32,000 bases of DNA. Source: Massilicoli timonensis. Lineage in GTDB: Bacteria; Bacillota_I; Bacilli_A; Erysipelotrichales; Erysipelotrichaceae. This document shows, in pieces, positions 14,308-30,784 of this stretch. Made by a program: the position numbers and the translations under genes. Position 1 is the stretch's first letter. Each line of letters begins with the position of its first letter. The DNA lies in assembly GCF_900199515.1 (NCBI RefSeq), contig NZ_LT963434.1:1622180-1654179 (forward strand), in the 5' to 3' direction. The notes beneath the pieces are model-generated. The model saw only the letters and a program-made list of their open reading frames with translations. It was not told the DNA's origin and did no database searches.

Positions 14308-14337
14308 ACGGTATGGGAAATCTCATACCGTTTTTTT
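14308..14337 (+). terminator. Rho-independent terminator of gap
   Basis: 10-bp stem ACGGTATGGG / CTCATACCGT (one G-U pair), loop AAAT, then T7. Confidence 0.8.
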
Positions 14338-14786: not shown

Positions 14787-14818
14787 CAGAAGAAAGCGTG
14801 ATCCTCATTGTTTTTTAG

Positions 14819-14847
14819 TTGAAAGGGCAATCGCGTCATGCTATACT
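14819..14847 (+). promoter_or_regulatory. Promoter of the cysS T-box leader
   Basis: TTGAAA (14819-14824), 17 nt, extended -10 TGcTATACT (TATACT 14842-14847). Confidence 0.55.
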
Positions 14848-14854
14848 ATAAGAA

Positions 14855-15070
14855 ACCAAAGATAAGGGACGAGTAGCCACAGGATAAGCGCATAGAGAGG
14901 ATCTGGCCGGTGAAAAGATTTCGCGGACTTGTGAGGAATGCACCTTTTAGGGTTTTTTCGATAATGTAGAAAAAAACGTAGATCGGCGTTACTCGATAAA
15001 TAAGTGGAATCAAAGCGTTCAAGTAGAGTGGGACCGTGCGAACTGCACCTCTATATTGACGTTTTTTTTA
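14855..15070 (+). promoter_or_regulatory. T-box riboswitch leader, cysteine specifier (UGC)
   Basis: Stem I elements AGAGA (14894-14898) and distal GGTGAAA. Specifier context GAA-TGC-A (TGC 14939-14941). T-box core AGAGTGGGACCGTGCG (about 15024-15039). A terminator helix CGTTCAAGTAGAG...CTCTATATTGACG is followed by T8 (15062-15069), just upstream of cysS. Confidence 0.8.
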
Positions 15071-15088
15071 TGAATCAGGAGGAACGAT

Positions 15089-16420
15089 ATGAAATTATTT
15101 AACAGTATGAGCAGGGAAGTGGAGGAATTTCAGCCAATCCATGAAAACCAGGTAAACATGTATGTGTGCGGACCGACGGTCTATAATCATGCACATATCG
15201 GCAATGCCAGACCGATCGTGGTGTTTGATACGCTGCGCAAGACATTTGAGATGCTGGGCTACCAGGTAAAAATGGTATCCAATTATACCGATGTCGATGA
15301 TAAGATCATCAAAGCGGCGATCGAGCGCCACATCAGCGAAAAAGAAGTAACCGAGGAATTTATCAAGGCTTATAACGACGTGCGTTTGCAGCTGCATGCG
15401 AAAATGCCGGATGCGGCGCCAAAGGTAACGGAAACGATGGACCGCATCATTGCGTTTATCGATATTCTGGTAAAAAAAGGCTATGCATATGTGGTAGATG
15501 GAGATGTGTATTTCAGAGTCGGTGAGGTAAACCAGTATGGCGGCTTATCACATCAGCAGGTCGATGATCTGGTGGTCGGTGCGCGCATTGATGAAAACAG
15601 TAAAAAGGAAAATCCGCTTGATTTTACTTTGTGGAAAGCGACGGAGGAAGGAATCCGATGGGAATCGCCATGGTCGCTTGGACGCCCGGGCTGGCATACG
15701 GAATGCGTGGTCATGATCAATAAGGAATTCGATGGTGAACTGATCGATATTCACGGCGGCGGCATGGACTTGAAATTTCCACACCATGAAAATGAGATCG
15801 CCCAGTCTCGTGCGGCTTTCGGCAATCCGATCGCCAATTATTGGATCCATAACGGCATGGTAAATATTGACGGAGAAAAGATGTCAAAATCATTAGGCAA
15901 TGTGATCTGGGCAAAGGATATGATCGCTAAAATCGGTGCGAATGTACTGCGCTGGGTGATGCTGTCGGCACATTATCGCGGGCCGCTAAATATCAATGAA
16001 GAAGCGATTGCCACGGCGAGCAAAGAATTGGAGCGTATCAGTAAATCCATGACGCAGGCTTATGTGAAAGCAGGCTTGGCCGGCGTAGAATTACAAGGAG
16101 ATGCGGCAGAAATCTGGGATCGATTCCTGGAAGCAATGCAGGATGATCTCAATACGCCAAATGCAGTGGCATGCGTTTTTGAAGCCAATAAGCAGCTCAA
16201 CCAGGCGCTGCGTCAAAAAGAGGTGGACTTTGCATGGATCGGCAGCCTGATGAAGGCGCTGGAACAGATGCTTTATGTGCTGGGAATTGAAATTCCGAAG
16301 ACAGTGCTGGGTGAAGAAGATAAAGCGATTTTCGCAAAATGGAATGCGGCGAAAGCGGAAAAGCAGTTTGAGGAAGCAGACCGTTACCGCATGATCTTGA
16401 TTGAAAGAGGTTTGTTGTAA
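15089..16420 (+). CDS. cysS: Cysteine--tRNA ligase
   Basis: HIGH motif (HIGNAR) and KMSKS motif (KMSKSLGN), with class I architecture. It is preceded by the Cys T-box. Confidence 0.95.
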   Translation: MKLFNSMSREVEEFQPIHENQVNMYVCGPTVYNHAHIGNARPIVVFDTLRKTFEMLGYQVKMVSNYTDVDDKIIKAAIERHISEKEVTEEFIKAYNDVRLQLHAKMPDAAPKVTETMDRIIAFIDILVKKGYAYVVDGDVYFRVGEVNQYGGLSHQQVDDLVVGARIDENSKKENPLDFTLWKATEEGIRWESPWSLGRPGWHTECVVMINKEFDGELIDIHGGGMDLKFPHHENEIAQSRAAFGNPIANYWIHNGMVNIDGEKMSKSLGNVIWAKDMIAKIGANVLRWVMLSAHYRGPLNINEEAIATASKELERISKSMTQAYVKAGLAGVELQGDAAEIWDRFLEAMQDDLNTPNAVACVFEANKQLNQALRQKEVDFAWIGSLMKALEQMLYVLGIEIPKTVLGEEDKAIFAKWNAAKAEKQFEEADRYRMILIERGLL

Positions 16421-16809
16421 TGCGGGCTGACGCGATGAATGCGACCTCGCTTGCTTATATCGGGGATGCACTGATGTCGCTTTATGTACGGGAGTATTTA
16501 TTGTCGCAAGGCTATCAAAAGCCAAACGATCTGCAAGTGAAGAGCACTTATTATGTGAGTGCCAAAGCACAGGCGCATTATGTGAAGATCTTGATGGAGC
16601 AGTCATTTTTTCGGGAAGCAGAGTTGGAAATCATACGTCGCGGCCGCAATGCGCATACGGTTACGAAAGCCAAAAACGCCGATGTAATGACATATCGCAT
16701 GTCTACCGGTTTTGAGGCGCTTTGGGGATATCTGTATCTGAATCAAGAGCAGGCGCGATTGGAAGAATTGTGGGAAGCGGTAAAAAAGATAGGAGAAGTG
16801 AAGCGATGA
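16420..16809 (+). CDS. mrnC: Mini-ribonuclease III
   Basis: LAYIGDALMSLYVREYLL and the GFEALWGYLYL RNase III-like signature. TAATG junction with cysS. The order is conserved as cysS-mrnC-rlmB. Confidence 0.85.
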   Translation: MRADAMNATSLAYIGDALMSLYVREYLLSQGYQKPNDLQVKSTYYVSAKAQAHYVKILMEQSFFREAELEIIRRGRNAHTVTKAKNADVMTYRMSTGFEALWGYLYLNQEQARLEELWEAVKKIGEVKR

Positions 16810-17531
16810 CGCAATATGTATATGGGAAGAATGTCGTCCACCAGCTATTGAAAGAACAAAAACGCATCTATGAGGTGATCGTAAGCGAGGGGCTGAAGGA
16901 TCGGGAATTGATCAAAGCGCTGAAGCAGCGGCATCTTACGATTCGCAGTATGCCGCGCAAACAAATGGATCGGCTGTTAAAGACAGAGCATCATCAGGGA
17001 ATTGCGGCTTGTATCGATGATTACAAGACTTATTCGCTGGAGGAACTATTGGAAACGATACCGGAAGGAAAGACGCCGTTTTTGATCATGCTGGATAACT
17101 TAGAAGATCCACATAATCTGGGGGCGATCCTGCGTACTTGTGATGCGGTTGGTGCAGATGGTGTGATCTTGGCGAAAAATCGCAGCGTTTCTTTGAACCC
17201 GACGGTCGCAAAGGTATCGACCGGTGCGATCGATACCGTAAAAGTCGCTGTGGTAAACAATTTATCACAGACGCTGGTGCGTTTGAAAGAAAAGGGATTT
17301 TGGGCAGTAGGAGCTGATCTGGAGCAATCGATCGATTATCGGGAAGCAGATTTTACCGTTCCGCTGGTGCTGGTCGTCGGCTCGGAAGGCTTTGGCATTC
17401 GTCCGCTGGTACGCAAAAACTGTGATTACTGCGTACGATTGCCGATGGTCGGCACGATCACTTCCTTAAACGCTTCGGTCGCCTGCGGCATCCTTCTTTA
17501 CGAAGTATTTAATCAGCGCGATCATCGCTAG
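16806..17531 (+). CDS. rlmB: 23S rRNA (guanosine-2'-O)-methyltransferase RlmB (TrmH/SpoU family)
   Basis: Start at Met29 of the track ORF (MTQYVYGKN...), in an ATGA junction with mrnC. SpoU motifs are LDNLEDPHNLGAILRT, VVGSEGFGI and LNASVA. Confidence 0.88.
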   Translation: MTQYVYGKNVVHQLLKEQKRIYEVIVSEGLKDRELIKALKQRHLTIRSMPRKQMDRLLKTEHHQGIAACIDDYKTYSLEELLETIPEGKTPFLIMLDNLEDPHNLGAILRTCDAVGADGVILAKNRSVSLNPTVAKVSTGAIDTVKVAVVNNLSQTLVRLKEKGFWAVGADLEQSIDYREADFTVPLVLVVGSEGFGIRPLVRKNCDYCVRLPMVGTITSLNASVACGILLYEVFNQRDHR

Positions 17532-17579
17532 ATAGAATAATTATTTGGGAAACGTAAAAATACGTTTTGGGAGGAATCA

Positions 17580-18188
17580 ATGGGGAAGAAGAAAACAGGG
17601 AGCGCTGTGCGCCCCAATGACTATGAATTGTTGTATTATGGGTTACAAAATCAGGAAAGTGCATGGAATTTATTGCATTGTTCCTATCAATCGCTTATTG
17701 AGATCGCTTTGTATCGCTGGAACGCTTATTTCACTGAGGAAGAACGAAAAGAACTGAAACAGGAGTGTTTTCATTCTCTTTCACTTGCCTTGTATGAATA
17801 CCGCGAGGATCAGGGCGCATCATTTTACACTTATGTTTCTAAGCGGCTGGAGAATGTCATTGTTTCTTATGTGCGCCGCCGTCAGGCATTAAAGCGCAAA
17901 GCGATGGTGCATGCTTATTCACTTGATGTCAGCATCAATGAAAAAGAGAGCTGTTATTGGATCGATCAGATACGCAATGATCAATGGGAGTTTGAAGGTG
18001 TTTTGAAATTACGCTGGAAGGAAGCGCAAAAGCAGGAAGAAGCGATCTTGCGTACATGCAGCGAACTGGAACAAAAGATCTTTCGCTATCATCGCTATGG
18101 CTATCGGTATGATGAAATAGCGGCGATCCTACATACGACTAAGAAAAAAGTCGATAATACGATACAAAAGATTCGCAAGAAACTTTGA
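17580..18188 (+). CDS. sigH: Sigma-70 family sigma factor, SigH-like by position
   Basis: 202 aa with region-2-like (FYTYVSKRLENVI) and region-4 HTH (YDEIAAILHTTKKKVDNTIQKIRKKL) segments. It lies between rlmB and rpmG-secE-nusG, as in Bacillus. The yacP gene is absent. Confidence 0.65.
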   Translation: MGKKKTGSAVRPNDYELLYYGLQNQESAWNLLHCSYQSLIEIALYRWNAYFTEEERKELKQECFHSLSLALYEYREDQGASFYTYVSKRLENVIVSYVRRRQALKRKAMVHAYSLDVSINEKESCYWIDQIRNDQWEFEGVLKLRWKEAQKQEEAILRTCSELEQKIFRYHRYGYRYDEIAAILHTTKKKVDNTIQKIRKKL

Positions 18189-18193
18189 TTTCA

Positions 18194-18222
18194 TTGACTA
18201 GCACGGCACTTTATGTTACAGT
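18194..18222 (+). promoter_or_regulatory. Candidate promoter for rpmG-secE-nusG
   Basis: TTGACT (18194-18199), 17 nt, extended -10 TGtTACAGT (18217-18222). Confidence 0.4.
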
Positions 18223-18248
18223 TAATAAGCATAGAAAGAGGTGTAAAC

Positions 18249-18398
18249 ATGAGTGAAAAAGTAATTTTGACATGCACGCGCTGCCTTTCTCGTAACTATA
18301 CGACACATAGAAATAAGAAGACCAATACGCAGCGTCTGGAGCTGAAAAAGTATTGTAAAAAATGCGGAGAGCATACGATTCACAAGGAAACGAAATAA
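18249..18398 (+). CDS. rpmG: 50S ribosomal protein L33
   Basis: 49 aa with a zinc ribbon CTRC...CKKC and the ending HKETK. SD GAGGTG is present. Confidence 0.92.
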
Positions 18399-18410
18399 GG
18401 AGTGAATGAA

Positions 18411-18587
18411 ATGAAATGGTTTAGTATTGCCGGAATTCGGGCAGAGGTGCACCGAATCCGTTGGCCTAAGATGAAGGATCTGATTGCGAACAGCGGTTCG
18501 GTTATTTTCTTTACCGCTGCATTTGCGCTGTTTTTTACTTTGTGCGAATGGATTGCAAAAACGTATTTGCACTTCATCGGACTTTAG
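18411..18587 (+). CDS. secE: Preprotein translocase subunit SecE
   Basis: 58 aa with the EVHRIRWPKMKDL motif followed by a single TM helix. ATG 18411 lies 8 nt after AAGGAG. Confidence 0.85.
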   Translation: MKWFSIAGIRAEVHRIRWPKMKDLIANSGSVIFFTAAFALFFTLCEWIAKTYLHFIGL

Positions 18588-18599
18588 GAGGAATGCGTT

Positions 18600-19148
18600 G
18601 TGAGTGAAGGAAACAAAGAATGGTATGTCGTAAATACCTATGCCGGACATGAAAACAGGGTAAAAGAAAATCTGGAACGCCGTATTGAAACGATGGGATT
18701 ACAGGATTTCCTGTTTCGTGTCGTCGTGGCAGAAGAGACGGAAATCGAATATAAAAACGGCAAGCAGGTCGAAAAAGTACAGAATCTGTTTCCCGGCTAT
18801 CTGTTTGTGGAAATGAACATGACCGATGAGGCATGGTATACGGTGCGTAATACGCCGGGGGTTACCGGATTTATCGGATCCAGCGGGGGCGGGGCAAAGC
18901 CTTTCCCGGTAGCGGAAGATGAAATTGAGGCGATCCTGCGCCGTCTTGGCATGTCTGATCGCAAGGTAAATGTCGATTTTGCGGTAGGTGATCGTGTTAA
19001 GATCCTGAACGGTCCGTTTGCGGGTTCGGAAGGAACAGTGGAAGAACTGCACGATGACGCACAGGAAGCAGTGGTATTGTTGATCTTATTCGGACGGGAA
19101 ACACCGACAGAGATCGGTTACGGCGAACTGGAAAAAGTAGATTTATAA
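18600..19148 (+). CDS. nusG: Transcription termination/antitermination factor NusG
   Basis: NGN domain (WYVVNTYAGHENRVKENLE) and KOW motif (GDRVKILNGPFAGSEGTVEEL). GTG start 8 nt after GGAGG. Confidence 0.95.
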   Translation: MSEGNKEWYVVNTYAGHENRVKENLERRIETMGLQDFLFRVVVAEETEIEYKNGKQVEKVQNLFPGYLFVEMNMTDEAWYTVRNTPGVTGFIGSSGGGAKPFPVAEDEIEAILRRLGMSDRKVNVDFAVGDRVKILNGPFAGSEGTVEELHDDAQEAVVLLILFGRETPTEIGYGELEKVDL

Positions 19149-19153
19149 GAGCG

Positions 19154-19184
19154 GACTTTCATCGAAAGATGGAGGTCTTTTTTT
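19154..19184 (+). terminator. Strong rho-independent terminator of nusG
   Basis: 10-bp stem GACTTTCATC / GATGGAGGTC (some G-U pairs), GAAA tetraloop, then T7. Confidence 0.85.
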
Positions 19185-19255
19185 AAGCGGATCATTCGTT
19201 TGTTCCTTGCTTTTGTTTGAAGATGAATCGCTTAGGCGCATGAAAAACAAAGGAC

Positions 19256-19290
19256 AATAAAAAGGCGTGTATCACTTTATGGATACACGC
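19256..19290 (-). terminator. Rho-independent terminator of the HxlR-family gene
   Basis: Perfect 9-bp stem GCGTGTATC (19265-19273) / GATACACGC (19282-19290). The minus strand then reads CTTTTTATT. It lies 9 nt past the stop codon. Confidence 0.8.
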
Positions 19291-19298
19291 TGCTTCAT

Positions 19299-19634
19299 TT
19301 AATGTTGAGAATTTTGATAAGCCTCACCGAAGTCTCGCATGGCGTCCAGGATCGGATGCAGGCTTTTGCCTAATGCCGTCAAGGTGTATTCTACGCGCGG
19401 CGGTACTTCCGCATAAACGGTACGCGTCAGTAAACCGTTTTCCTCCATTGCTCGAAGCTGCGTGGTCAATACCTTTTGCGATACGGAGCCGATTGATTTT
19501 TTTAATTCACCAAAACGTTTTGTGCCGGTAAGCAAATCACGCAAGATCAGCACTTTCCACTTATCACCGATCAAAGTCAAGGTTGTTTCCACAGGACAAG
19601 CCGGTAGTGCTTTCACTGATTTTTGTTCAGTCAT
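19299..19634 (-). CDS. HxlR-family winged-helix transcriptional regulator
   Basis: CPVETTLTLIGDKWKVLILRDL..G.KRFGELKKSI..VSQKVLT.QLR.ME..GL..R.VY.EVPPRVEY.LT..G is the family signature, including the N-terminal Cys. Confidence 0.9.
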   Translation of the reverse strand: MTEQKSVKALPACPVETTLTLIGDKWKVLILRDLLTGTKRFGELKKSIGSVSQKVLTTQLRAMEENGLLTRTVYAEVPPRVEYTLTALGKSLHPILDAMRDFGEAYQNSQH

Positions 19635-19840
19635 CGTATCATCTCCTCTTAATAGTTTCTATCGGTAACTTTGTTTACAATTTTACCATACAGCCTCAAT
19701 GCAATCAAGAGGACCGATGGCTTATCATAAGCAGTATAAATGATAATACGGTTGAATAGATGCATGTTTATGTAAAAGCTAAAAATGGAGAATCTTTTAA
19801 TAGTATCTTTTTGGTAACTACAGTACAAAAAAGTGCTTAC

Positions 19841-19869
19841 TTTACATTGGAAACCAATGGTCCTATAAT
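19841..19869 (+). promoter_or_regulatory. Candidate promoter for the NTF2-like gene or operon
   Basis: TTTACA (19841-19846), 17 nt, TATAAT (19864-19869). This leaves a 5' UTR of about 115 nt. Confidence 0.5.
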
Positions 19870-19992
19870 ATGCACAGAGCTGCAAAGAACGGCCGTTTGG
19901 AAAGCTCAAAGTGAATAAAAAGAATAAAGCTAAGATGTATATGTGTGAAAGTATTTGATAACAAGTAACGAAATAAAAAGGAGGAAACAATC

Positions 19993-20766
19993 ATGACAAA
20001 TATAGAAAATGCAGTTGCACTCATCCATACTTTTGCAAGCGGTGATGTTGAAAAAGCGAAAGATCTGCTTGCGGAAGGATATATCCAACATAACCTTGCC
20101 TATGGAACAGGACGTGATGCCTTTATCAGCTCGGTTGCCGCGCTTGCTTCTGCTCCTGTTAAAACGACTGTAAACAATATCCGTGCATTTGAGGACGGCG
20201 ATAAGGTTTTCTTACAGACAGTTTACAACTTTGCAGGTGCGGGCGAGCAAGTCGCTTTTGACATTTTCCGTTTTGAAGAAAACGGCAAGATTGCCGAGCA
20301 TTGGGATAATCTCGCAGCAAAGGCAGATCCAAATCCCTCCGGCAGAACACAGATTGATGGCACGATGGAACTGAAAGATCTTGATAAGACGGAGGCAAAC
20401 CGTGAAGTAGTCAAGCATTTCCTTTACGATGTTATGCAGGGCAACCGTCCTGAAAAGACACCGGATTATTTTGATGGTGATACCTACATCCAGCATAACA
20501 CCGGCATTGCCGATGGATTGTCTGGTTTAGGCGCTGCACTGGCGGCACTTGCTGAACAAAATATACAGATGATTTATACAACCGTTCATCAGGTGCTTGC
20601 ACAAGGGAATTTCGTGCTTGCGGTCAGTGAAGGAACTTTCGGCGGTATGCCGACCTCTTACTATGATCTGTGGCGTGTTGAGGACGGTAAGATTGCCGAG
20701 CATTGGGATGTAATGGAAACCATTGCTGACAAATCTACTTGGCAAAATCAAAACGGTAAATTCTAA
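19993..20766 (+). CDS. Tandem NTF2/SnoaL-like domain protein
   Basis: Two internal repeats are visible: ...GYIQHNLAYGTG...GKIAEHWDNL and ...TYIQHNTGIADG...GKIAEHWDVM. SD AAAAGGAGGA is present. Confidence 0.75.
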   Translation: MTNIENAVALIHTFASGDVEKAKDLLAEGYIQHNLAYGTGRDAFISSVAALASAPVKTTVNNIRAFEDGDKVFLQTVYNFAGAGEQVAFDIFRFEENGKIAEHWDNLAAKADPNPSGRTQIDGTMELKDLDKTEANREVVKHFLYDVMQGNRPEKTPDYFDGDTYIQHNTGIADGLSGLGAALAALAEQNIQMIYTTVHQVLAQGNFVLAVSEGTFGGMPTSYYDLWRVEDGKIAEHWDVMETIADKSTWQNQNGKF

Positions 20767-20773
20767 ATAAGAC

Positions 20774-20808
20774 AAAGTCCTGCATCTATATTTGCAATGC
20801 AGGACTTT
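20774..20808 (+). terminator. Perfect 12-bp stem-loop, possibly a weak terminator or RNA-stability/processing element
   Basis: AAAGTCCTGCAT (20774-20785) / ATGCAGGACTTT (20797-20808) with an 11-nt loop. There is no U tract beyond the stem, so read-through into the next gene is likely. Confidence 0.45.
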
Positions 20809-20841
20809 ACGCAATATCTTGTTTGGGAAAGGGTGTGGCAA

Positions 20842-21456
20842 ATGAACTATTTACATTACTTAGAAAAAGAAATTCATTCTGTGATCGCGGCAACTGTCGA
20901 TGACAACGGTCTGCCCGTTACCTGTGCGATTGACATAATGGATAGTGATGAAAAAGGATTGTATTTTTTAACGGCGAAAGGAAAAGGGGTTTATCACCGC
21001 TTAAAGAAAAACGAATATGTTGCATTAACAGGAATGCATGCAGGCGATACGCTTTCCCGTGCAGCTGTTTCGGTACGGGGAAAAGTACAAGAAATCGGGA
21101 AAACGCCTTTGCTAAGGCTGTTTGAAAAAAATCCATATATGAATGAGATTTATCCGAGTGAAGAGTCCCGACAGGCGCTTACTGTCTTTCATCTTTATGA
21201 GGGCAGCGGTGAATGGTTTGACCTTTCAAAAAAGCCGATTGAGCGCGCTTCTTTCACGATTGGCAGCAAACAGGAAGAAAAACAGGGCTATGAAATTACG
21301 CAAAAATGTAACGGCTGCCGGACTTGTCAAACTGTCTGCCCGCAAGATTGCATCGATTTTTCGATCGTCCCTGCTGTAATCAGGCAGGGAAACTGCCTGC
21401 ATTGCGGCAACTGTTTCCATGTTTGTCCGCAAAAAGCAGTGATACGGAGAGGATAA
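20842..21456 (+). CDS. Pyridoxamine-5'-phosphate-oxidase-family (flavin split-barrel) domain fused to a 2x[4Fe-4S] ferredoxin domain
   Basis: Start at Met16 of the track ORF, because the earlier ATG sits inside the hairpin. The N-terminal PNPOx-like pattern is VIAATVDDNGLPVTCAIDIM...GLYFLTAKGK. The C-terminus carries two cluster motifs, CNGCRTCQTVCP and CLHCGNCFHVCP. Confidence 0.8.
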   Translation: MNYLHYLEKEIHSVIAATVDDNGLPVTCAIDIMDSDEKGLYFLTAKGKGVYHRLKKNEYVALTGMHAGDTLSRAAVSVRGKVQEIGKTPLLRLFEKNPYMNEIYPSEESRQALTVFHLYEGSGEWFDLSKKPIERASFTIGSKQEEKQGYEITQKCNGCRTCQTVCPQDCIDFSIVPAVIRQGNCLHCGNCFHVCPQKAVIRRG

Positions 21457-21460
21457 GAAA

Positions 21461-22240
21461 ATGACACAAACCGAAAGACGAAGATATTTAATAGCGGCAC
21501 TTCTAAAAGAACAGCCGCAGCATGCTAAAATCGAAATTCCATCGCGTGAGCAGGAACAAAAATCCTTGCTTCGTTCGCTTTTTAATAAACGCATGCCCTT
21601 GCCTGTAACAGATGAATTTGTGACGGTTCAGGATGCTTATTTGCAGGAAGAAATCCGCAGGAAAGGAATTACGGCTTTATCAGACTTAACACCGATTCAA
21701 AAAGGGATATATCTTTGGCGTGGGGATATTACCACGCTGCAATGCGACGGTATTGTAAATGCCGCCAACAGTCAAATGCTCGGCTGTTTCTGTCCGAATC
21801 ACGGCTGCATTGACAATGCCATCCACACCTTTGCGGGGGTACAGCTTCGTTTGGCTTGTGCGGAGTTGATGAGAAAGCAAGGTCATCAGGAAGAAACGGG
21901 GAAAGCTAAGATCACCCTTGCCTATAATTTGCCGAGCCGTTATGTGCTGCACACGGTCGGTCCGATTGTTCACGGTGATCTTACTGAAAAAGATAAAGAG
22001 CTGCTTGCTTCCTGTTACCGATCTTGTTTGGAACTGGCAGAAAAAAACGGGCTAAAAAGTATTGCATTCTGTTGCATTTCTACGGGAGAATTTCATTTTC
22101 CAAATGATAAAGCAGCACAGATAGCGGTTGAAACCGTAAAAAGATATAAGAAACAAACACACAGCGAAATAGAGGTGATATTCAATGTTTTTAAGGAACT
22201 TGATTACAACATCTACCATGAGCTGCTCCAAGCAAATTGA
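21461..22240 (+). CDS. Macrodomain protein, sirtuin-linked protein-ADP-ribose hydrolase type
   Basis: GDITTLQCDGIVNAANSQMLG, HTVGPIV and FCCISTGEFHFP are macrodomain motifs. A Cys/His cluster CFCPNHGC is present, as in the Zn-binding sirtuin-linked macrodomains. The start lies 4 nt after the upstream stop, with SD GGAGAGGA. Confidence 0.9.
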   Translation: MTQTERRRYLIAALLKEQPQHAKIEIPSREQEQKSLLRSLFNKRMPLPVTDEFVTVQDAYLQEEIRRKGITALSDLTPIQKGIYLWRGDITTLQCDGIVNAANSQMLGCFCPNHGCIDNAIHTFAGVQLRLACAELMRKQGHQEETGKAKITLAYNLPSRYVLHTVGPIVHGDLTEKDKELLASCYRSCLELAEKNGLKSIAFCCISTGEFHFPNDKAAQIAVETVKRYKKQTHSEIEVIFNVFKELDYNIYHELLQAN

Positions 22241-23009
22241 CAAACTGAAAAAAGAAATAGAAAAAGCCGATGCGATTATAATCGGCGCAGGCGCAGGAAT
22301 GTCCGCCTCGGCAGGATTTACCTATGATGGAGAACGCTTTGAAAAGTATTTTTCCGATTTTTATAAAAAGTATGGAATTTCAGATATGTATGCAGGCGGT
22401 TTTTATCCATATGAAACCCTCGAAGAATATTGGGCGTGGTGGTCACGGCATATCTATGTAAATCGTTATGATGTGTCTGTCGGAGAGCCATATTCTACAC
22501 TACTAAAAATCGTGCAGAATAAGGACTATTTTGTATTAACGAGCAATGTAGACCATCAATTTCAGCTTGCGGGCTTTGATAAAAAACGACTGTTTTACAC
22601 ACAGGGCGATTATGGTTTATGGCAGTGTTCAAAAGCGTGTCACGATAAGACCTATGATAACGAGAAAACTGTACGGAAAATGGTTGCAGAGCAAAAGGAT
22701 ATGAAGATTCCAACAGATTTGATACCGAAATGTCCTGTTTGCGGGGCGCCTATGACGATGAATTTAAGATGTGATAGCTTCTTTGTGGAGGATGAAGGCT
22801 GGCATGCCGCCGCAAATCGTTATACAGATTTTATCAGTAAGCATAAAAATAAGCATGTTTTATTTTTAGAACTTGGTGTTGGCGGGAACACCCCGGTGTT
22901 ACATTTTTGGAGCACCGCAGAAAAATCAAGAAAACACATGGATAAACGGCAGACCCAGATTGGTTCGCATAACTGGATAAAAGAATTTAAGGAAAAGAGG
23001 TGTGCATGA
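22185..23009 (+). CDS. Class-M-like (macrodomain-linked) sirtuin, copy 1, with an aberrant C-terminus
   Basis: GAGAGMSASAGF (NAD-binding loop), TSNVDHQFQLAGF, YTQGDYGLWQC, and Zn-ribbon cysteines C..C / CPVCG. SD GAGGTGA lies 6 nt before ATG 22185 (alternative start 22218). It overlaps the macro gene by 56 nt. The last 37 aa or so do not align with copy 2. Confidence 0.8.
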   Translation: MFLRNLITTSTMSCSKQIDKLKKEIEKADAIIIGAGAGMSASAGFTYDGERFEKYFSDFYKKYGISDMYAGGFYPYETLEEYWAWWSRHIYVNRYDVSVGEPYSTLLKIVQNKDYFVLTSNVDHQFQLAGFDKKRLFYTQGDYGLWQCSKACHDKTYDNEKTVRKMVAEQKDMKIPTDLIPKCPVCGAPMTMNLRCDSFFVEDEGWHAAANRYTDFISKHKNKHVLFLELGVGGNTPVLHFWSTAEKSRKHMDKRQTQIGSHNWIKEFKEKRCA

Positions 23010-23869
23010 TGTTTGGCTGGAGAATTCCTAAAGCAGAGAATACGCCTGAAGCTACGGAAAAGCTGCGTGCGGCGTTGGATAAAGCGGAGGCGGTAATTGT
23101 TGGTGCCGGCGCCGGCCTATCTACTTCTGCCGGCTTCACTTATTCGGGAGAACGTTTTGAAAAGCATTTCCACGATTTTGCAGCCAAATATCATTTCAGT
23201 GATATGTATTCCGGGGGCTTCTACCACTATGATACACTGGAAGAACATTGGGCGTACTGGAGCCGGTATATTCTTATCAATCGTTATGAGGATGCGCCAA
23301 AGCCGGTATATGACAAGCTGCTTTCGCTAATCCAGAACAAAGACTATTTTGTGTTGACAACAAATGTCGATCACTGCTTTCAGAAAGCTGGATTTGATAA
23401 GCATAGATTGTTCTACACACAAGGGGATTACGGATTGTTCCAGTGCAGCGAGCCATGCCACCAAAAGACATACGAAAATGAAGCTGTCATTCGCCAGATG
23501 GTACAGCAGCAAAAAGATATGAAGATTCCATCTGATTTAATTCCCCGCTGCCCTGTATGTGGAAAACCGATGACAATGAACCTTCGTGCGGATAATACTT
23601 TTGTGGAAGATGAAGGCTGGCATACCGCTTCGGAACGGTACGCAGACTTCCTTTGTCGTCATAAACACATGAACACGCTGTTCTTAGAATTAGGCACCGG
23701 CATGAATACGCCGGGCATAGTGAAATTTAGTTTCTGGAGGATGGCATATGAGTGGCCGGACGCAATTTATGCCTGTATCAATCTGAACGAGGCATATGCG
23801 CCAAAGGAGATTCAGAAAAACTCCATCTGTATCAATGCGGACATAGGAGAAGTGCTGAACAAGCTGTAA
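23006..23869 (+). CDS. Class-M-like (macrodomain-linked) sirtuin, copy 2, apparently full length
   Basis: It carries the same motif set as copy 1 (GAGAGLSTSAGF, TTNVDHCFQKAGF, YTQGDYGLFQC, CPVCG). It also has the C-terminal Rossmann strands ACINLNEAY...ICINADIGEVL. It forms an ATGA junction with copy 1. Confidence 0.85.
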   Translation: MMFGWRIPKAENTPEATEKLRAALDKAEAVIVGAGAGLSTSAGFTYSGERFEKHFHDFAAKYHFSDMYSGGFYHYDTLEEHWAYWSRYILINRYEDAPKPVYDKLLSLIQNKDYFVLTTNVDHCFQKAGFDKHRLFYTQGDYGLFQCSEPCHQKTYENEAVIRQMVQQQKDMKIPSDLIPRCPVCGKPMTMNLRADNTFVEDEGWHTASERYADFLCRHKHMNTLFLELGTGMNTPGIVKFSFWRMAYEWPDAIYACINLNEAYAPKEIQKNSICINADIGEVLNKL

Positions 23870-23969: not shown

Positions 23970-24491
23970 ATGGAACTAAACGAAATGGAAAAAAAGCTGC
24001 TTTTTCAGGTAGAAGGAGATTATCAGACTAAAGTTCTGAATGAGCTCTACATGACCGTGCGCTATTCAAATGATTCCGAGCAGCGGGAGGCGGCGCAAAG
24101 CCTCATGGCAAAGCTGCGCATCCTGTCGGATGCGGAGTGCATGGACTTAGTGAAGGACATACAGAAGAACTACCGTCTGCCCCATCCGCCCCGGACTATT
24201 GGGGAAAGGATTGCCGAGGCCAGGCAGCGATCCGGCGCTGAAAAATTAAAAGGGCATGACATCATGGCGCTGGAACGGTTTGACCCGGAGGTGCGGCACA
24301 TGATCGTCTTTGATGTACTGTCCTATGACGCCCCTGTTGGCGATAAGGGAGATAAGATGCGTCTGTTCCTTACAGATGCCGGTTATCAGAAATTTTTAGA
24401 CAGCCAGGAACGGGGCGAAGTAAAACTGAAAAACCATGCAAAGGTGTCCGGCGGAAATCTTTATTATGACCGCAGGGACCGTGCCTTGTAG
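23970..24491 (+). CDS. ICE protein whose N-terminal third resembles transposon-transfer-assisting (TTRAP) family proteins
   Basis: SD GGAGGAAGGAG is present. The N-terminus MELNEMEKKLLFQVEGDYQTKVLNELYMTVRYS...LSDAECMDLV resembles the small TTRAP proteins at the ends of Firmicute conjugative transposons. This is from recollection and is unverified. Confidence 0.55.
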   Translation: MELNEMEKKLLFQVEGDYQTKVLNELYMTVRYSNDSEQREAAQSLMAKLRILSDAECMDLVKDIQKNYRLPHPPRTIGERIAEARQRSGAEKLKGHDIMALERFDPEVRHMIVFDVLSYDAPVGDKGDKMRLFLTDAGYQKFLDSQERGEVKLKNHAKVSGGNLYYDRRDRAL

Positions 24492-24520
24492 CGGAATAAT
24501 CGAAGAAAGGAGGCTGTGAA

Positions 24521-25393
24521 ATGGCTGTATTCCGTGTAGAGAAAACGAAGGACTTTACGGTTATGAGCAATCATCATCTGCGTAATACGGAATTGTCCTT
24601 AAAGGCGAAGGGGCTCCTTTCCCTTATGCTGTCGCTGCCGGAAGATTGGGATTATACCACAAAGGGGCTTGCACATATCTGTAAGGACGGTGTGGATTCT
24701 ATTACTACCGCCCTGAAGGAGCTGGAGCGGCACGGGTATCTTACCAGGCAGCGCCTCCGATATGATAACGGGCAGCTCGGAGATATTGAATACACAATCC
24801 ATGAAAAGCCCGCAACCGGCGTAAAACAAGGAGTTCCACCTAAACGGGAAAATCCAAGACAGGCAAATCCAAGACAGGCAAAACCTAAACAGGCGGAACC
24901 TGGACAGGGAAATCCCGCACAATTAAATACTAATCCACAAAGGACTAAAAAATCAAAAACGGATATATCAAGAACACATCAATCAATCTATCCGGCAGAG
25001 CCGGAAACGGCTGACTGTCAGGATGGGATTGATAGGATGGATATGGCAGAGGCATATCGTGAAATCATCAAAGAGAATGTTGAGTATGACTTTCTGGTTC
25101 CCCGCTATGGGAGGGAACGCATGGACGAAACGGTGGAGCTTATACTGGAAACGGTGCTTTCCAGACGGCCATATATCCGCATTGCCGGAGACGACTTTCC
25201 ACGGGAGGTTGTCAGGAGCCGGTTCTTAAAGATCAACTCCAGCCATGTGGAGTATGTTTTTGACTGTATCGACAAGAATGTTACGAAGGTCAACAATATC
25301 AAGGCTTATCTGCTGGCAGCGTTCTATAATGCCACAGCGACGATGGATAGTTATTACCGTGCCGAGGTCAATCACGACATGTACGGGTGTTAG
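24521..25393 (+). CDS. DnaD/replisome-organiser-like wHTH replication protein (DUF6017-type C-terminus)
   Basis: N-terminus FRVEKTKDFTVMSNHHLRN..LSLKAKGLLSLMLSLPEDWDYT..GLA.I.KDG.DSI..ALKELE..GYL. A proline/glutamine pentapeptide-repeat linker follows. The C-terminal domain is conserved. Confidence 0.7.
   Translation: MAVFRVEKTKDFTVMSNHHLRNTELSLKAKGLLSLMLSLPEDWDYTTKGLAHICKDGVDSITTALKELERHGYLTRQRLRYDNGQLGDIEYTIHEKPATGVKQGVPPKRENPRQANPRQAKPKQAEPGQGNPAQLNTNPQRTKKSKTDISRTHQSIYPAEPETADCQDGIDRMDMAEAYREIIKENVEYDFLVPRYGRERMDETVELILETVLSRRPYIRIAGDDFPREVVRSRFLKINSSHVEYVFDCIDKNVTKVNNIKAYLLAAFYNATATMDSYYRAEVNHDMYGC
24848..24922 (+). repeat. Five imperfect tandem 15-bp repeats inside the Rep-like gene
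   Basis: The units are GAAAATCCAAGACAG, GCAAATCCAAGACAG, GCAAAACCTAAACAG, GCGGAACCTGGACAG and GGAAATCCCGCACAA. They are in frame and encode ENPRQ-ANPRQ-AKPKQ-AEPGQ-GNPAQ. Confidence 0.85.
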
Positions 25394-25414
25394 GCGCCAG
25401 AGGGCGCTTTTTTT
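25393..25414 (+). terminator. Rho-independent terminator after the Rep-like gene
   Basis: Stem GCGCC / GGCGC with loop AGAG, followed by T7. Confidence 0.6.
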
Positions 25415-25447
25415 CATGCAATCATGGAGGAAGGAGGCGAAAGCACA

Positions 25448-25486
25448 ATGAAACGAAAAGCTGTGCCGGTGTTATGCCCGGTGTAA
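25448..25486 (+). CDS. Candidate 12-codon leader ORF (MKRKAVPVLCPV) overlapping the Toprim gene start
   Basis: The only strong SD in the region (GGAGGAAGGAGG, 25427-25438) lies 9 nt before ATG 25448. The ORF ends at TAA 25484-25486, 10 nt past the out-of-frame ATG 25474 of the next gene. Confidence 0.3.
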   Translation: MKRKAVPVLCPV

Positions 25487-26457
25487 CCAAAGAGCAGATC
25501 CAGGCAGCCAGGGAGGCGGACCTGTTCGCTTACCTGCAGTTTCACGAGCCGGGCGTATTGAAACGGGACGGGCCGAATTACCGGCATAAAGAGCATGACA
25601 GCCTGGTTTATGTGACCGGGAAAAAATACTGGTACTGGAACAGCCGGGGCCGGAGTATCAACGCTCTGGACTACCTGATCCAGATTCGGGGATATGGTCT
25701 GGTGGATGCGGTCCACACACTGGTCGGCGGCGAGATTCAGCAGATACCGGAACGCCGGAGTACGCCGGAGCCAAATTACATACAGAGGGAACAGAAGAAA
25801 AAAGCCTTTTCCCTCCCCTGGGCCAGACGGTGTGCTACCGCTGCTGTTTCTTATTTGCAGCAGCGCGGAATCAGTAGTGAAGTAATCAGCCGGTGCGTTC
25901 GGTTAGGGCTTTTCTATGAAGCCCGTTATAAGGGCGAGGCGGTCTGTGTGTTTGTGGGAAAGGATGATGCGGGGAAAGCAAAATTTGCCTGTATGCGGAG
26001 TATTACCGGCAAACTCAGAAAGGACGTATACGGCAGCGACAAAATGTACAGCTTTTGTTATCCACCCCAAAATCCGGGCAGCCAGCATGTGGCGGTCTTT
26101 GAAGCGCCTATCGATGCTCTTTCCCACGTAACGCTGCAAGAGCTGGAAGGCTGGAAATGGGATGGCTACCGTCTGTCTTTGGGCGGTACCTCTCATGTGG
26201 CGCTGATTGCGTTTCTGGAGCGCCACCCGGAAATCCGGCGCGTCAATCTTTACATGGACAATGATCTTGGCGGTCTTAAAAATGCCAGAAGGATTAAGGC
26301 AATGCTCCATGACAATCCGCGTTTTAAGCATATCCGGGTAGGCATCAACCCGCCCCGCGTTGGAAAGGACTATAACGAAAAGCTGTTACATACCAGAGGA
26401 AAAATCAAGGACCGCCAACTACCATGCCGCCAGAAACAGGCGGCTATTTCAATTTAA
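25474..26457 (+). CDS. DUF3991 + Toprim domain protein (primase/topoisomerase-like, ICE-associated)
   Basis: Start taken at Met30 of the track ORF (MPGVTKEQIQAAREADLFAYL...), because the upstream extension crosses the terminator. Toprim acidic motifs are VAVFEAPIDALS and LYMDNDLGG. Confidence 0.8.
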   Translation: MPGVTKEQIQAAREADLFAYLQFHEPGVLKRDGPNYRHKEHDSLVYVTGKKYWYWNSRGRSINALDYLIQIRGYGLVDAVHTLVGGEIQQIPERRSTPEPNYIQREQKKKAFSLPWARRCATAAVSYLQQRGISSEVISRCVRLGLFYEARYKGEAVCVFVGKDDAGKAKFACMRSITGKLRKDVYGSDKMYSFCYPPQNPGSQHVAVFEAPIDALSHVTLQELEGWKWDGYRLSLGGTSHVALIAFLERHPEIRRVNLYMDNDLGGLKNARRIKAMLHDNPRFKHIRVGINPPRVGKDYNEKLLHTRGKIKDRQLPCRQKQAAISI

Positions 26458-26471
26458 GGGGGGATTTTGGT

Positions 26472-26696
26472 ATGAACGGAACACAGCAGATTCGTTTTAC
26501 GGACAGTGCTGGAAAGGCGCTGTTTTCGATTCCTGATAACGGCCTTCTCTGCCTGTTTTATGGAAATGGGGACCGGCATTTTTCTTTTTGCCGTTATCTG
26601 GACCAGGATCATGCGGAGATTGACGGCGTGAAATATTCTCTCCGTGAATTTGCCCGGAGGATGGAACACAACGAAATCAGTTTTGCCCCGGCTTAA
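26472..26696 (+). CDS. Small ICE hypothetical protein (74 aa)
   Basis: ATG 26472 follows AAGGGGGG. It is tightly packed in the operon. I recognise no motif. Confidence 0.5.
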   Translation: MNGTQQIRFTDSAGKALFSIPDNGLLCLFYGNGDRHFSFCRYLDQDHAEIDGVKYSLREFARRMEHNEISFAPA

Positions 26697-26728
26697 CGGC
26701 GGGGCCAGAATAACAGGAGGTTTTCACT

Positions 26729-27013
26729 ATGACAAAAACAGAAAATACCGCTTTGCAGATGATTGCCGAAACCGCCCGCTGCCCGGAGTATGGGCCTGAA
26801 ATGGTAACGGCGCTGATGAAAAAGCTGGATGTGAATGAAAAGGGGTTCGCGTTGCTGATGAATGTTACCCCTTCTACTGTCCGTCTCTGGACCAGTGGGG
26901 CCGTCCAGCCCAGCAGCACGGCAAAGCGGCTGATGCAGATTTTTGAGACCGGGCCGGAAATTATCGGCAAGATTGCCGGAGGGCAGCCTCCGGCAGACAG
27001 GAGGGATTTATAA
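26729..27013 (+). CDS. XRE/MqsA-like helix-turn-helix protein
   Basis: KGFALLMNVTPSTVRLWTSGAVQPSSTAKRLMQI fits an HTH followed by the 'G...P...A.RLL' pattern of the antitoxin/XRE class. SD CAGGAGG is present. Confidence 0.6.
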   Translation: MTKTENTALQMIAETARCPEYGPEMVTALMKKLDVNEKGFALLMNVTPSTVRLWTSGAVQPSSTAKRLMQIFETGPEIIGKIAGGQPPADRRDL

Positions 27014-27784
27014 ATGGCAGAAACGGACAGCCAGCCGATTGCGGAAAATGAGCAGGTAAAAGAGCTGCTTGCTCTCCTGAAAGACAACAATACGCCGGGA
27101 TATGAGGAATTTGCCAGGCTGATCGGCCATGTGACCGAGATGGAGCAGCGGCTTTCCGAAGCAACCGAGGAACTAAAGGCCATGCGTCGGGAGGTACAGG
27201 GCTTACAGGACCATTCCCTGAAAGATTCCCTCCAAAAAAGTTGTAAGGCTATGGAGGCAAGTGTGGCTGCTATGCGCCAGCGTCTTTCCAAGCTCAAAGA
27301 GCAGATCATTGACGGGTGCCGGCATATCCTGACTGATTTCAAGGAACGCGGAGCCGTTGCCTTGAATGGAATCACACAATTCCTGCATATCCGGCCAGCG
27401 CTGGAGGCTATTCAGGAGGCGGCAGAAAAAGGGATGCAGGCCAGTGACAGGGCTGTTTCCAGGATTGACGCTTTCAGTGCGGAATACCATGAGGCAGGCC
27501 GCCATCTGAAAAATATGGGCCGCACCCTTCGAGGGAAACCTATGGAGGCAGAAGCAAAAGAAACCGGAAAGATTGCCAGGGTGTTCAAAGGCGCTTTCAA
27601 AGCGGAGCGTGCCCTTATATCTTCTGTAAAACATGGCGCGGAGCGGTCTTTGAATACCCTTGCCCGATTGGAACAGACCGCAGAACGCCGTCCTTCCGTT
27701 TTGAAAGCAATGCGGGAGCAGGCAGCGAAAACGGAGCCGGCAAAAAAGCAGCCGGCACCTTCTCACGATAAGGACAGCCGGTAA
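27014..27784 (+). CDS. Coiled-coil ICE protein (DUF6674-like by recollection) with a C-terminal PSVL tail
   Basis: TAAATG junction with the upstream gene. Long heptad-like helical sequence. It ends ...ERRPSVLKAMREQAAKTEPAKKQPAPSHDKDSR. Confidence 0.6.
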   Translation: MAETDSQPIAENEQVKELLALLKDNNTPGYEEFARLIGHVTEMEQRLSEATEELKAMRREVQGLQDHSLKDSLQKSCKAMEASVAAMRQRLSKLKEQIIDGCRHILTDFKERGAVALNGITQFLHIRPALEAIQEAAEKGMQASDRAVSRIDAFSAEYHEAGRHLKNMGRTLRGKPMEAEAKETGKIARVFKGAFKAERALISSVKHGAERSLNTLARLEQTAERRPSVLKAMREQAAKTEPAKKQPAPSHDKDSR

Positions 27785-27818
27785 GCATTTGCAGCCCAGA
27801 GAGAAAGGAGGATTTTGA

Positions 27819-28721
27819 TTGAAACAGGAACCGCTGCCTCAGATTTATTTGCTCCGTGATACGGACCTTACGATATTTGCCTATGAACTCCATATTTTCG
27901 CGGGTGATTTTCTCCGGGAGAGTGAATTTAATATGCACTCCCTGGTTACGAATACCGGGCCGGATTCGATTGCTATTATGGGACACCGGCACATGTGGCT
28001 GTCCGATGCGCTGCACGCGTACTGTTCCACAGCGGACCTCTACCAGATGATCTTTACGACGGAATATCTTGGCGCAAGGGCTTTTCTGTTCCATACGGAT
28101 CATAAAGCGGACGGCCATCTGTACGGCGACATGCTGATGATGGACTTAGATACGCTGCGCCAGGATGTGAAAGGCAGCACACTTTCCCCCTATGGCGTCA
28201 ATATCGAACATCAAAACGGCGCGTCTGAAACGGTCAGCTTTGAAAAATGGCACTCGATGGAACTTTACGAAAAAGACGCTTTGAAAAGCTGGGGATTCTG
28301 CTACAGACCGGAGCAGGTTACAGAATGGCAGCATTACTATACCGGCAGATTCGGCCAGTGGAAAGAGCAGGCATTTTCCTATATGCCCCAGGATTTGGAG
28401 GAACGCCTGAATGTAGAATACATGACCGATGCGCAGAACCCCGATATGGATATGTACCGTATTCCTCTGGCAGCGGCAAAACAGATGCTTCTCTATGACG
28501 AAGCGCCGGTTTACCGTCTCCTTCCTTCCGGGCCGGAAAAGATAGCGCCTATTGCGGCAGTCACTACGGGGCTGTGGTATGAGCATTACAGGGAATTTGC
28601 CATTGCTCCGGAGGACTTAGGCGCTCTGGACCGATTGATTCATAGAGAAACGGATCGGATTATTGGAAAGCCCACTGCCCTTCATAAGCCGGAGAAAGAC
28701 CGTTCCAGTCAGGAGCGGTAA
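27819..28721 (+). CDS. ICE hypothetical protein (300 aa)
   Basis: TTG start 7 nt after GGAGG. It has no recognisable domain. The C-terminus ...IIGKPTALHKPEKDRSSQER may be a degenerate version of the shared tail. Confidence 0.5.
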   Translation: MKQEPLPQIYLLRDTDLTIFAYELHIFAGDFLRESEFNMHSLVTNTGPDSIAIMGHRHMWLSDALHAYCSTADLYQMIFTTEYLGARAFLFHTDHKADGHLYGDMLMMDLDTLRQDVKGSTLSPYGVNIEHQNGASETVSFEKWHSMELYEKDALKSWGFCYRPEQVTEWQHYYTGRFGQWKEQAFSYMPQDLEERLNVEYMTDAQNPDMDMYRIPLAAAKQMLLYDEAPVYRLLPSGPEKIAPIAAVTTGLWYEHYREFAIAPEDLGALDRLIHRETDRIIGKPTALHKPEKDRSSQER

Positions 28722-28750
28722 ATTTTTGTACAGATTGGAGGTGATACCGA

Positions 28751-30781: not shown

Positions 30782-30784
30782 GAG

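Follow-up and report, generated by a model that had tools for sequence, protein, structure and literature searches.

The 32,000-nt stretch of the Massilicoli timonensis (Erysipelotrichaceae) chromosome analysed here, referred to as the window, carries an operon coding for a class-M sirtuin (SirTM) and a zinc-type macrodomain protein (Zn-Macro), preceded by genes for a tandem SnoaL-like protein and for a flavin split-barrel protein fused to a ferredoxin (PNPOx-Fd), and it appeared to encode two sirtuins in tandem. The initial annotation had taken these for two divergent sirtuin paralogues. Comparison with the empty site and analysis of the insertion junction show otherwise: the first sirtuin gene (SirTM-1) is the resident gene truncated by insertion of an integrative conjugative element (ICE), and the second (SirTM-2) is the first gene of that element, which runs past the end of the window. 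We consider it likely that the locus as a whole represents a redox-stress operon under control of an HxlR-family regulator, containing a SirTM/Zn-Macro pair of the lone type, in which a conjugative element truncated the resident SirTM gene and brought in a replacement.

The empty site is preserved in four ICE-free contigs from the same species (L001-L004), in which nusG is followed by the genes for HxlR, SnoaL-like protein, PNPOx-Fd and Macro and by one intact SirTM gene of 288 codons, with accessory genes rather than an ICE downstream. The window is 98.7% identical in DNA sequence to these contigs over positions 19150-22896, where the blastn match ends, and the last base common to both alleles, 22896, lies inside the conserved codons for Asn-Thr-Pro (NTP). 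SirTM-1 reproduces the intact allele with few allelic substitutions up to ...LELGVGGNTP (codon 237) and is unrelated beyond, its tail consisting of 37 read-through codons of element DNA (22896-23006) ahead of a stop codon at 23007-23009. The conserved C-terminal 51 residues, including the invariant F243 and W244 and a near-invariant YAC.N block, are lost, so that SirTM-1 does not encode a complete sirtuin fold, and on account of the 51 residues lost and the 37 unrelated residues gained we regard it as a disrupted gene. SirTM-2 and the intact resident allele share 64% identity, in agreement with the earlier estimate by eye of roughly two-thirds identity. An assembly chimera was also considered and rejected, since the exact SirTM-1 and SirTM-2 proteins were always found side by side as here, on at least 14 contigs that come from several different samples. 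Campbell-type recombination between an ICE-borne and a chromosomal SirTM gene was likewise discarded, as it would yield two hybrid full-length genes and not a truncated gene followed by a non-homologous arm of 110 nt at an identical position in several hosts.

The operon and its surroundings are laid out below. Reading from the regulator, the gene order is HxlR (divergent), SnoaL-like, PNPOx-ferredoxin, Zn-Macro and SirTM. The four coupled open reading frames (ORFs) from PNPOx-Fd to SirTM-2, all on the + strand, lie where the initial annotation had placed them, and the junctions it described were read again from the sequence and stand: a 4-nt gap between PNPOx-Fd and Macro (21457-21460), a 56-nt overlap between Macro and SirTM-1 (22185-22240) and an ATGA overlap between SirTM-1 and SirTM-2 (23006-23009).

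19299-19634, - strand: HxlR-family regulator, 111 aa, divergent (Pfam HxlR, 8.6e-34; single N-terminal Cys13 in motif ACPVE)
19799-19869, + strand: operator-like block AATAGTATCTTTTTGGTAACTACAGTACAAAAAAGTGCTTACTTTACA and promoter-like site (two dyads; promoter match 11/12)
19993-20766, + strand: tandem SnoaL_2/NTF2-like protein of 257 aa, encoded at the head of the operon (two stretches matched by Pfam SnoaL_2, 1.3e-22)
20774-20808, + strand: hairpin with 12-bp stem between the SnoaL-like and PNPOx-Fd genes (by folding; no T-run after it)
20842-21456, + strand: PNPOx-Fd, PNPOx-like FMN split barrel with 2x[4Fe-4S] ferredoxin, 204 aa (Pfam PNPOx_N and Fer4 families)
21461-22240, + strand: Zn-Macro, predicted protein-ADP-ribose hydrolase, 259 aa (NF003163; PDB matches)
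22185-23009, + strand: SirTM-1, truncated resident sirtuin (homology to the intact 288-aa allele ends after codon 237)
22887-22900, no strand assigned: insertion junction (putative attL core), palindromic AACACC-CC-GGTGTT (blastn break and junction alignments)
22897-23005, + strand: element left arm, about 110 nt, beginning TGTTACATTTTTGGAGCACC (homologous arms in other hosts; carries the SirTM-2 ribosome-binding site)
23006 (or GTG at 23000)-23869, + strand: SirTM-2, intact element-borne class-M sirtuin, 287 aa (SpySirTM homology)
23970-32000, + strand: conjugative-element genes, DUF5720 to the start of DUF3846 (Pfam; gene tables of identical contigs)

The part of the element that lies within the window encodes DUF5720, HTH_36/DUF6017, DUF3991/Toprim, DUF6674, LPD1 and LPD34 proteins and the start of a DUF3846 protein, and has a G+C content of 0.49-0.52, compared to 0.40-0.45 in the operon. 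A copy of SirTM-2 with 84% identity is the first gene of the same type of element at related loci L018 and L017/L019, where the order is SirTM, DUF5720, DUF6017, DUF3991/Toprim, LPD1, LPD34, DUF3846/YodL, DUF3801 and a VirD4-like gene. Locus L018 belongs to another species and has a different upstream operon, and its resident SirTM gene is again cut to an ORF of 274 aa. At L017 (7453-18435) and L019 the same ICE type occupies a non-sirtuin site adjoining a DUF2705/ABC gene cluster, with no Macro gene nearby. The junction reads AACACCCCGG / arm TGTTACATTTTTGGAGCACC in the window, AACACCCCGG / GGATCATC at the empty site and AATACCCCAG / TGTTTTGTTCTTCGAGCACC in L018; L017 represents a pseudo-site whose host side has the same AATACCCCAG core, and the pseudo-site of L017/L019 uses the same AATACCCC core as the insertions into SirTM genes. 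Homologous left arms are found at the same position in L017, L018, L020, L085 and L107, and the junction itself recurs in at least four other hosts with an insertion at the SirTM site, those of L018, L020 (Gemmiger formicilis), L085 (a Lachnospiraceae metagenome-assembled genome) and L107 (a metagenome contig). Conjugation genes comprise those for a VirD4-type coupling protein and Maff2 (L102, L017), Toprim/DUF3991 and LPD1/LPD34; no relaxase or VirB4 gene was found within the element stretches examined. The 89% DNA identity between SirTM-2 and an element-free resident Macro-SirTM locus, L016, suggests the source of the SirTM copy carried as cargo.

The frame of the left arm remains open over 37 codons and its stop codon overlaps the SirTM-2 start (TGATG/TAATG) in 4 of the 5 insertions at the SirTM site, and a promoter scan detected no + strand promoter-like site within the arm (22897-23005). 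On these two grounds we infer that the host operon drives SirTM-2 through read-through and translational coupling, in which case it would replace the broken resident gene. In this reading the conjugative element inserted site-specifically at the N-T-P codons of the resident SirTM gene, removing its last 51 residues, and its own first gene, a complete SirTM without an obvious promoter of its own and with a start overlapping the stop of the truncated ORF, would be expressed from the operon of the host.

The palindromic junction in the window, and the resemblance of the reverse complement of the ICE left arm to the right arms of decayed islands, suggest that a large serine recombinase uses this junction as its attachment site. 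Right-hand junctions of related decayed islands resembling attR were detected in L001, L092 and L098. In L001 (12046-16317), the last ~155 nt of the SirTM gene are repeated as three decayed pseudo-copies, at 13792, 14698 and 16164, each of which starts at the AACAC core and is preceded by an arm like GRTGCRCAATAAAsAA. These decayed copies bound accessory cassettes (a 197-aa protein with AbiEii, ParE/MazE, and AAA_14), and in sister strains a Schlafen/AlbA_2 gene is also located downstream of SirTM. The 3' end of the SirTM gene appears to be a serial insertion hotspot.

Further variants of these elements were observed. In L020 (Gemmiger formicilis DFI.6.10, 10915-19538), the same left arm and spare SirTM gene are associated with other cargo, i.e. 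genes for TnpV, ArsA, an arsenate-reductase-like phosphatase, an ACR3-type (SBF-family) transporter, ArsR and a heavy-metal P-type ATPase. In L126 (2400-4376), a single SirTM gene lies between the resident Macro gene and the ICE gene for DUF5720, without the left-arm motif; the body of this gene is closer to ICE-borne copies (76-80% DNA identity) than to resident ones, and the locus looks like a collapsed truncated-plus-spare pair. In L101 (13018-15860), which has a variant of the ICE of the window, a VirD4-like gene cut to 103 aa is followed by genes for TnpW and for a TnpX-like large serine recombinase of 624 aa. The recombinase gene was rejected as the end of the element, since more element genes follow; because these genes continue and the coupling-protein gene is interrupted, it is read as a nested insertion.

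The SirTM and Zn-Macro proteins have the features of a class-M writer/eraser pair for protein mono-ADP-ribosylation, their catalytic activities being predicted from sequence and structural homology. In class-M sirtuins, the catalytic histidine is replaced in a QG motif and the gene is linked to that of a special macrodomain (Rack et al. 2015, PMC4518038); a 2021 review lists the catalytic trio N118/Q137/R192 (Spy numbering) together with the macrodomain zinc motif. SirTM-2 aligns with SpySirTM (5a3a) over residues 6-286 (E = 1.3e-74), the motif YTQGD is present in both window sirtuins, and N120, Q139, G140, R194 and four cysteines are invariant in an alignment of 15 SirTM sequences, while the Pfam SIR2 match of both window proteins is marginal, as expected for this divergent class. 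The Macro protein (WP_102268949.1, named "protein-ADP-ribose hydrolase") scores 379 bits against the NCBIfam equivalog of that name, NF003163 (cut-off 272), and matches the S. aureus Zn-macrodomain 5kiv at 4e-79, with further PDB matches to 8rsl/8rsi. Its catalytic-loop Cys/His motif LGCFCPNHGCIDN aligns with LGCMQANHDCIDN of S. aureus in 5kiv and replaces the Gly-rich stretch; the zinc motif is held in CFCPNHGC, whose C..NH.C residues align with S. aureus GCMQANHDC. The Macro of the window is, from these alignments, a canonical Zn-Macro with predicted zinc binding, and the resident SirTM gene is tied to it through the 56-nt overlap. The initial annotation had correctly noticed the Gln at the position of the catalytic His, the AGFTY loop and the CFCPNHGC cluster, which are published hallmarks of SirTM and Zn-Macro proteins and not anomalies. 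It had also read TSNVDHQFQ in both sirtuins, which is exact for SirTM-1, but SirTM-2 reads TTNVDHCFQ. The 90% cluster of the window Macro includes two members of 519 aa (P0374, P0377), which may be Macro fusions or read-through gene calls.

Neither a GCV_H nor a lipoate-ligase (BPL_LplA_LipB) domain was detected by Pfam in any ORF of the 32-kb window tested, so that the claim of a writer/eraser module without gcvH-L or lplA2 beside it is borne out, as are its further elements by the NCBIfam and PDB matches and the conserved catalytic residues. Conspecific contigs that span this region list no GcvH or lipoate ligase in their gene tables, and both domains are missing from the recurrent neighbour families near 80 related SirTM loci (Pfam scans of 259 ORFs, which superseded a tblastn search with an approximate E. 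coli GcvH query that gave nothing meaningful). Old yellow enzyme (OYE) and luciferase-like monooxygenase (LLM) families were not found in the window ORFs tested either. SirTM/Zn-Macro pairs are known alone, in an extended operon, or fused (Ariza et al. 2024, PMC11490716), and pairs without GcvH-L/LplA2 form a recognised category, the "lone operons" (PMC4518038, PMC11490716). Zn-Macros of such lone pairs do not demodify GcvH-L, and the targets of lone pairs are unknown (PMC11490716).

The context of the pair was surveyed from both sides. With one genome per species, at least 585 stretches with SirTM relatives were available, of which the best 80 were examined by tblastn with the window proteins; conversely, from metagenomes at least 560 relatives of PNPOx-Fd were available, and the best 80 (59-79% identity) were examined for what follows them. 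Because these are best-80 sets with crude ORF calling, the fractions obtained are indicative only. A Macro gene is adjacent at 62 of the 80 SirTM loci, and a PNPOx-Fd fusion lies within 6 kb upstream on the same strand at 27/80, any PNPOx-type gene at 33/80 and a divergent HxlR gene at 40/80, or, where 3 kb or more of upstream sequence is available, at 33 of 57. In the reverse direction, a Macro gene lies directly downstream of PNPOx-Fd relatives at 62 of 73 loci with enough sequence, mostly after a gap of 5-24 nt, and at 50 of 61 after collapsing near-identical contigs (about 82-85%). The linkage with PNPOx-Fd is kept in many genomes and in both directions, and in a second species all five genes of the cassette recur together, at another place in the chromosome. 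The SnoaL protein is less frequent, being encoded upstream at 9/80 SirTM loci and at 15 of the 49 PNPOx-Fd loci with enough upstream sequence. Clustering and Pfam analysis of other same-strand neighbours yielded nitroreductase, radical SAM/SPASM, NAD_binding_10, Rrf2, Fer4-nitroreductase and FMN_red families, with nitroreductase at ~12, NAD_binding_10 at ~8 and radical SAM at ~8 of the 80 SirTM loci, and none at some. In Clostridia and their relatives the pair thus lies within a conserved set of flavin and iron-sulfur reductases, probably under HxlR control. PNPOx-Fd is the commonest of them, its place being taken in other genomes by nitroreductase, NAD(P)H-binding or radical-SAM proteins, and the arrangement has the appearance of a second kind of extended SirTM operon, so far undescribed. 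In L018 (4786-6379), L020, L071 and L023, genes for a separate 131-aa PNPOx-like protein and for an ECF-transporter S component occur upstream of the PNPOx gene and Macro; the S component has a weak riboflavin-type match, which hints at a link of this operon variant with flavin supply.

The 204-aa start of PNPOx-Fd is backed by homologues of 204-207 aa, and its AlphaFold2 model (pLDDT 79.7) features an FMN-type split barrel with Foldseek matches to 2hhz, PNP oxidase, GS26-like and NimA/NimC proteins, followed by a clostridial-type 2x[4Fe-4S] tail. These features would fit a low-potential reductase, without specific chemistry being assignable. The gene junctions support the tight coupling of the SirTM/Zn-Macro pair to PNPOx-Fd, and Pfam matches the presence of the SnoaL (tandem NTF2) protein and the Cys-bearing HxlR regulator upstream, as had been proposed.

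The regulator consists of the family's winged-helix domain with the conserved N-terminal Cys, its closest solved structures being 7kd3, HypR/YybR (4a5m) and HxlR (7bze). In the alignment with B. subtilis HypR, Cys13 falls on the sensing residue Cys14, and the second Cys of HypR is absent. A conserved intergenic block at 19799-19846 contains two dyads, TAGT.TC-N5-GGTAACTA and GCAC/GTAC-N6-GTGC, and lies over the -35 box of the promoter-like site TTTACA-17-TATAAT (11/12 match), as would a putative HxlR operator. Window positions 19801-19850 align to L018 by blastn, and a probe of the 18-nt core matches with at most 4 mismatches at ~25 loci of other species, beside the HxlR gene and whatever genes follow. 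This recurrence beside HxlR supports control of the whole operon by the regulator, and we infer such control, DNA binding and thiol sensing being predicted.

The events in the operon may then be pictured as follows. An oxidant or electrophile would modify Cys13 of HxlR and thereby turn the operon on; the SirTM would ADP-ribosylate a protein of this regulon, for which the co-translated flavoenzyme PNPOx-Fd is our best guess, weakly held, and the Zn-Macro would remove the mark. PNPOx-Fd is the leading if weakly supported candidate by analogy, its gene having the position of that of GcvH-L in Staphylococcus.

Several other readings of the locus have to be weighed against this one. That the two sirtuins arose by tandem duplication and are functional paralogues with separate substrates might be suggested by two open, tightly coupled ORFs with 64% identity across their common part, but it is scarcely credible given that conspecific strains have a single intact gene, that homology breaks at 22896, that SirTM-1 ends in unrelated residues instead of the conserved last 51, and that SirTM-2 accompanies the element in other hosts and at a site that is not a SirTM gene. 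A toxin/antidote or anti-phage system similar to DarT/DarG in an accessory islet, as the initial annotation had also envisaged, is disfavoured and in our view very improbable. An ADP-ribosyltransferase does lie next to a reversing macrodomain, mobile DNA is adjacent, and AbiEii, ParE/MazE and Schlafen-like cassettes gather downstream of SirTM in other strains; yet 9 of 52 well-flanked SirTM loci have no Macro gene within ~10 kb, the ICE takes SirTM alone into the Macro-less site of L017/L019, no PADLOC model matches any of the proteins, and the pair is part of a conserved HxlR-linked redox operon in many species and at different chromosomal sites. Only slightly less improbable is that the pair continues to work with a GcvH-L/LplA2 system whose genes lie at another place in the genome. 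The DNA searched for it amounts to 32 kb of 2.09 Mb, which leaves room for such genes, but both domains are absent from the window ORFs tested and from the families that recur near 80 related SirTM loci, and in published assays Zn-Macros of lone pairs leave the GcvH-L mark in place (PMC11490716).

The main rival, to which we give a substantial chance, though short of even, is that PNPOx-Fd and the other reductases are merely co-regulated within an HxlR regulon, the pair acting on HxlR itself or on a conserved target that is encoded at another locus. What lies beside the pair varies as listed above, HxlR is its most constant partner, and SirTM proteins stay 63-76% identical across these different neighbours, which fits a shared target elsewhere better than a neighbour-specific one. 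On the other hand, the Macro gene follows most PNPOx-Fd relatives within a few bases, a tighter linkage than co-regulation needs, and for the one SirTM that has been characterised, the modified protein is the product of the gene immediately upstream of Macro, as published. The interpretation as an HxlR-controlled redox-stress operon with an ICE-borne replacement SirTM is itself weakened by this constancy of SirTM, by the presence of PNPOx-Fd at only about a third of SirTM loci, by the strong hairpin that separates the SnoaL and PNPOx-Fd genes, and by the limited part of the genome searched for GcvH-L/LplA2. Both surveys, moreover, draw on the 80 best matches rather than on random loci and on crude ORF calls with tblastn; the stretches examined stop short of the element's right end, of its recombinase gene and of the displaced 3' part of the SirTM gene; and ADP-ribosylation, HxlR binding and co-transcription are predicted from sequence.

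The hairpin just mentioned was not called as a terminator in the promoter and terminator scan. The region 20760-20845 folds with -25.2 kcal/mol (z = -3.4), and none of 200 shuffled sequences was as stable; the hairpin could be a processing or attenuation site, and it covers an alternative upstream ATG at 20797. Elsewhere in the window, at 11001-11741, a gene for a protein of metallo-beta-lactamase fold lies between the G5/M23 peptidase and RlmH genes, with a Pfam match to Anti-Pycsar_Apyc1 in precomputed gene tables. Its product is probably a chromosomal housekeeping nuclease or phosphodiesterase of that fold.

The SirTM and Zn-Macro motifs and the existence of pairs without GcvH-L/LplA2 were already known. 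The conserved linkage of such a pair with PNPOx-Fd and HxlR is new, and the sirtuin-targeting element with its spare gene is a new example of known mobile-element behaviour. PNPOx, HxlR, ferredoxin and nitroreductase neighbours are not mentioned in Rack et al. 2015 (PMC4518038) or Ariza et al. 2024 (PMC11490716), supplements included, and a full-text literature search retrieved no paper joining HxlR, macrodomain and sirtuin, nor one joining conjugative element, serine recombinase, sirtuin and integration site. It is tempting to speculate that Clostridia and Erysipelotrichia possess a second extended operon in which the ferredoxin-fused FMN split-barrel protein, or an equivalent reductase, stands in for lipoyl-GcvH-L as the reversibly ADP-ribosylated target and a thiol-sensing HxlR protein is the regulator, and that SirTM-targeting elements with a spare SirTM set up for translational coupling have made the 3' end of this gene an accretion hotspot. 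The conjunction of all these parts is tentative, and we would rather expect some of them to fail. If it did hold, ADP-ribosylation would directly gate low-potential detoxifying reductases in anaerobes, and a family of conjugative and mobilisable elements would use the SirTM gene as attachment site, its 3' end collecting accessory and defence cassettes.

The targets and role of lone pairs are a stated open question (Ariza et al. 2024), for which a short list of candidates may now be drawn up, comprising the flavin-ferredoxin protein with the pair after it in about four-fifths of cases and the alternative reductases, with the regulator and its candidate operator hinting at the inducing stress. 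The false lead of two paralogues is removed as well. Mobile elements of this family, which insert at a conserved sirtuin motif in many gut anaerobes and supply a replacement for the gene, also bear on how elements limit the cost of their insertion and how accessory islands build up beside SirTM.

Among known systems, the pair in the window is closest to the lone SirTM/Zn-Macro pairs of Enterococcus faecalis, Treponema pedis and Clostridium asparagiforme (PMC4518038, PMC11490716), with which it shares a Macro gene directly before an overlapping SirTM gene, QG instead of HG, the zinc motif in the catalytic loop of Macro, the absence of GcvH-L and LplA2, and an unknown target. Unlike these, it forms the distal part of a conserved PNPOx-ferredoxin/reductase operon with a divergent HxlR gene, as is also the case in many Clostridia. 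The extended operon known from S. aureus and S. pyogenes (gcvH-L, macro, sirTM and lplA2, with OYE and LLM genes) is similar in the coupling of the pair to the gene directly upstream of Macro, in its FMN-dependent oxidoreductases and in its association with oxidative stress. The operon of the window differs in lacking lipoyl carrier and ligase, in encoding PNPOx-like or nitroreductase flavoproteins and not OYE or LLM, in its HxlR-type regulator, and in a ferredoxin domain that points to low-potential anaerobic electron input. With DarT/DarG it has in common an ADP-ribosyltransferase paired with a reversing macrodomain, but the transferase has a sirtuin and not a DarT fold, Macro is not always adjacent, no defence model matches, and DarT acts on DNA, the one characterised SirTM on a protein.

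HxlR-family sensors of thiol-reactive and electrophilic compounds, each with its regulon, include HypR of B. subtilis, which controls the nitroreductase gene hypO, as well as YodB and the S. aureus QsrR. The regulator of the window resembles these in being small and divergently encoded, with a conserved N-terminal Cys in a CPxE motif, in its adjoining nitroreductase or flavin-reductase genes and in the palindrome over the promoter, and it differs from HypR in having no second Cys. We know of no ADP-ribosylation writer/eraser pair in regulons of the HypR, YodB or QsrR type.

Integrative elements that repair the gene they interrupt are exemplified by SXT in prfC and by islands that occupy the 3' ends of tRNA genes; Tn4451 (TnpX) and Tn5397 (TndX) are clostridial elements whose movement depends on large serine recombinases. 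With such systems the element of the window has in common its site-specific insertion in a conserved gene, the predicted restoration of target function by element DNA, the inverted-repeat arms around a short core and the TnpV/TnpW-type genes of related elements. It differs in that it brings not just the missing end but a whole replacement gene, predicted to be coupled to the truncated ORF of its host.

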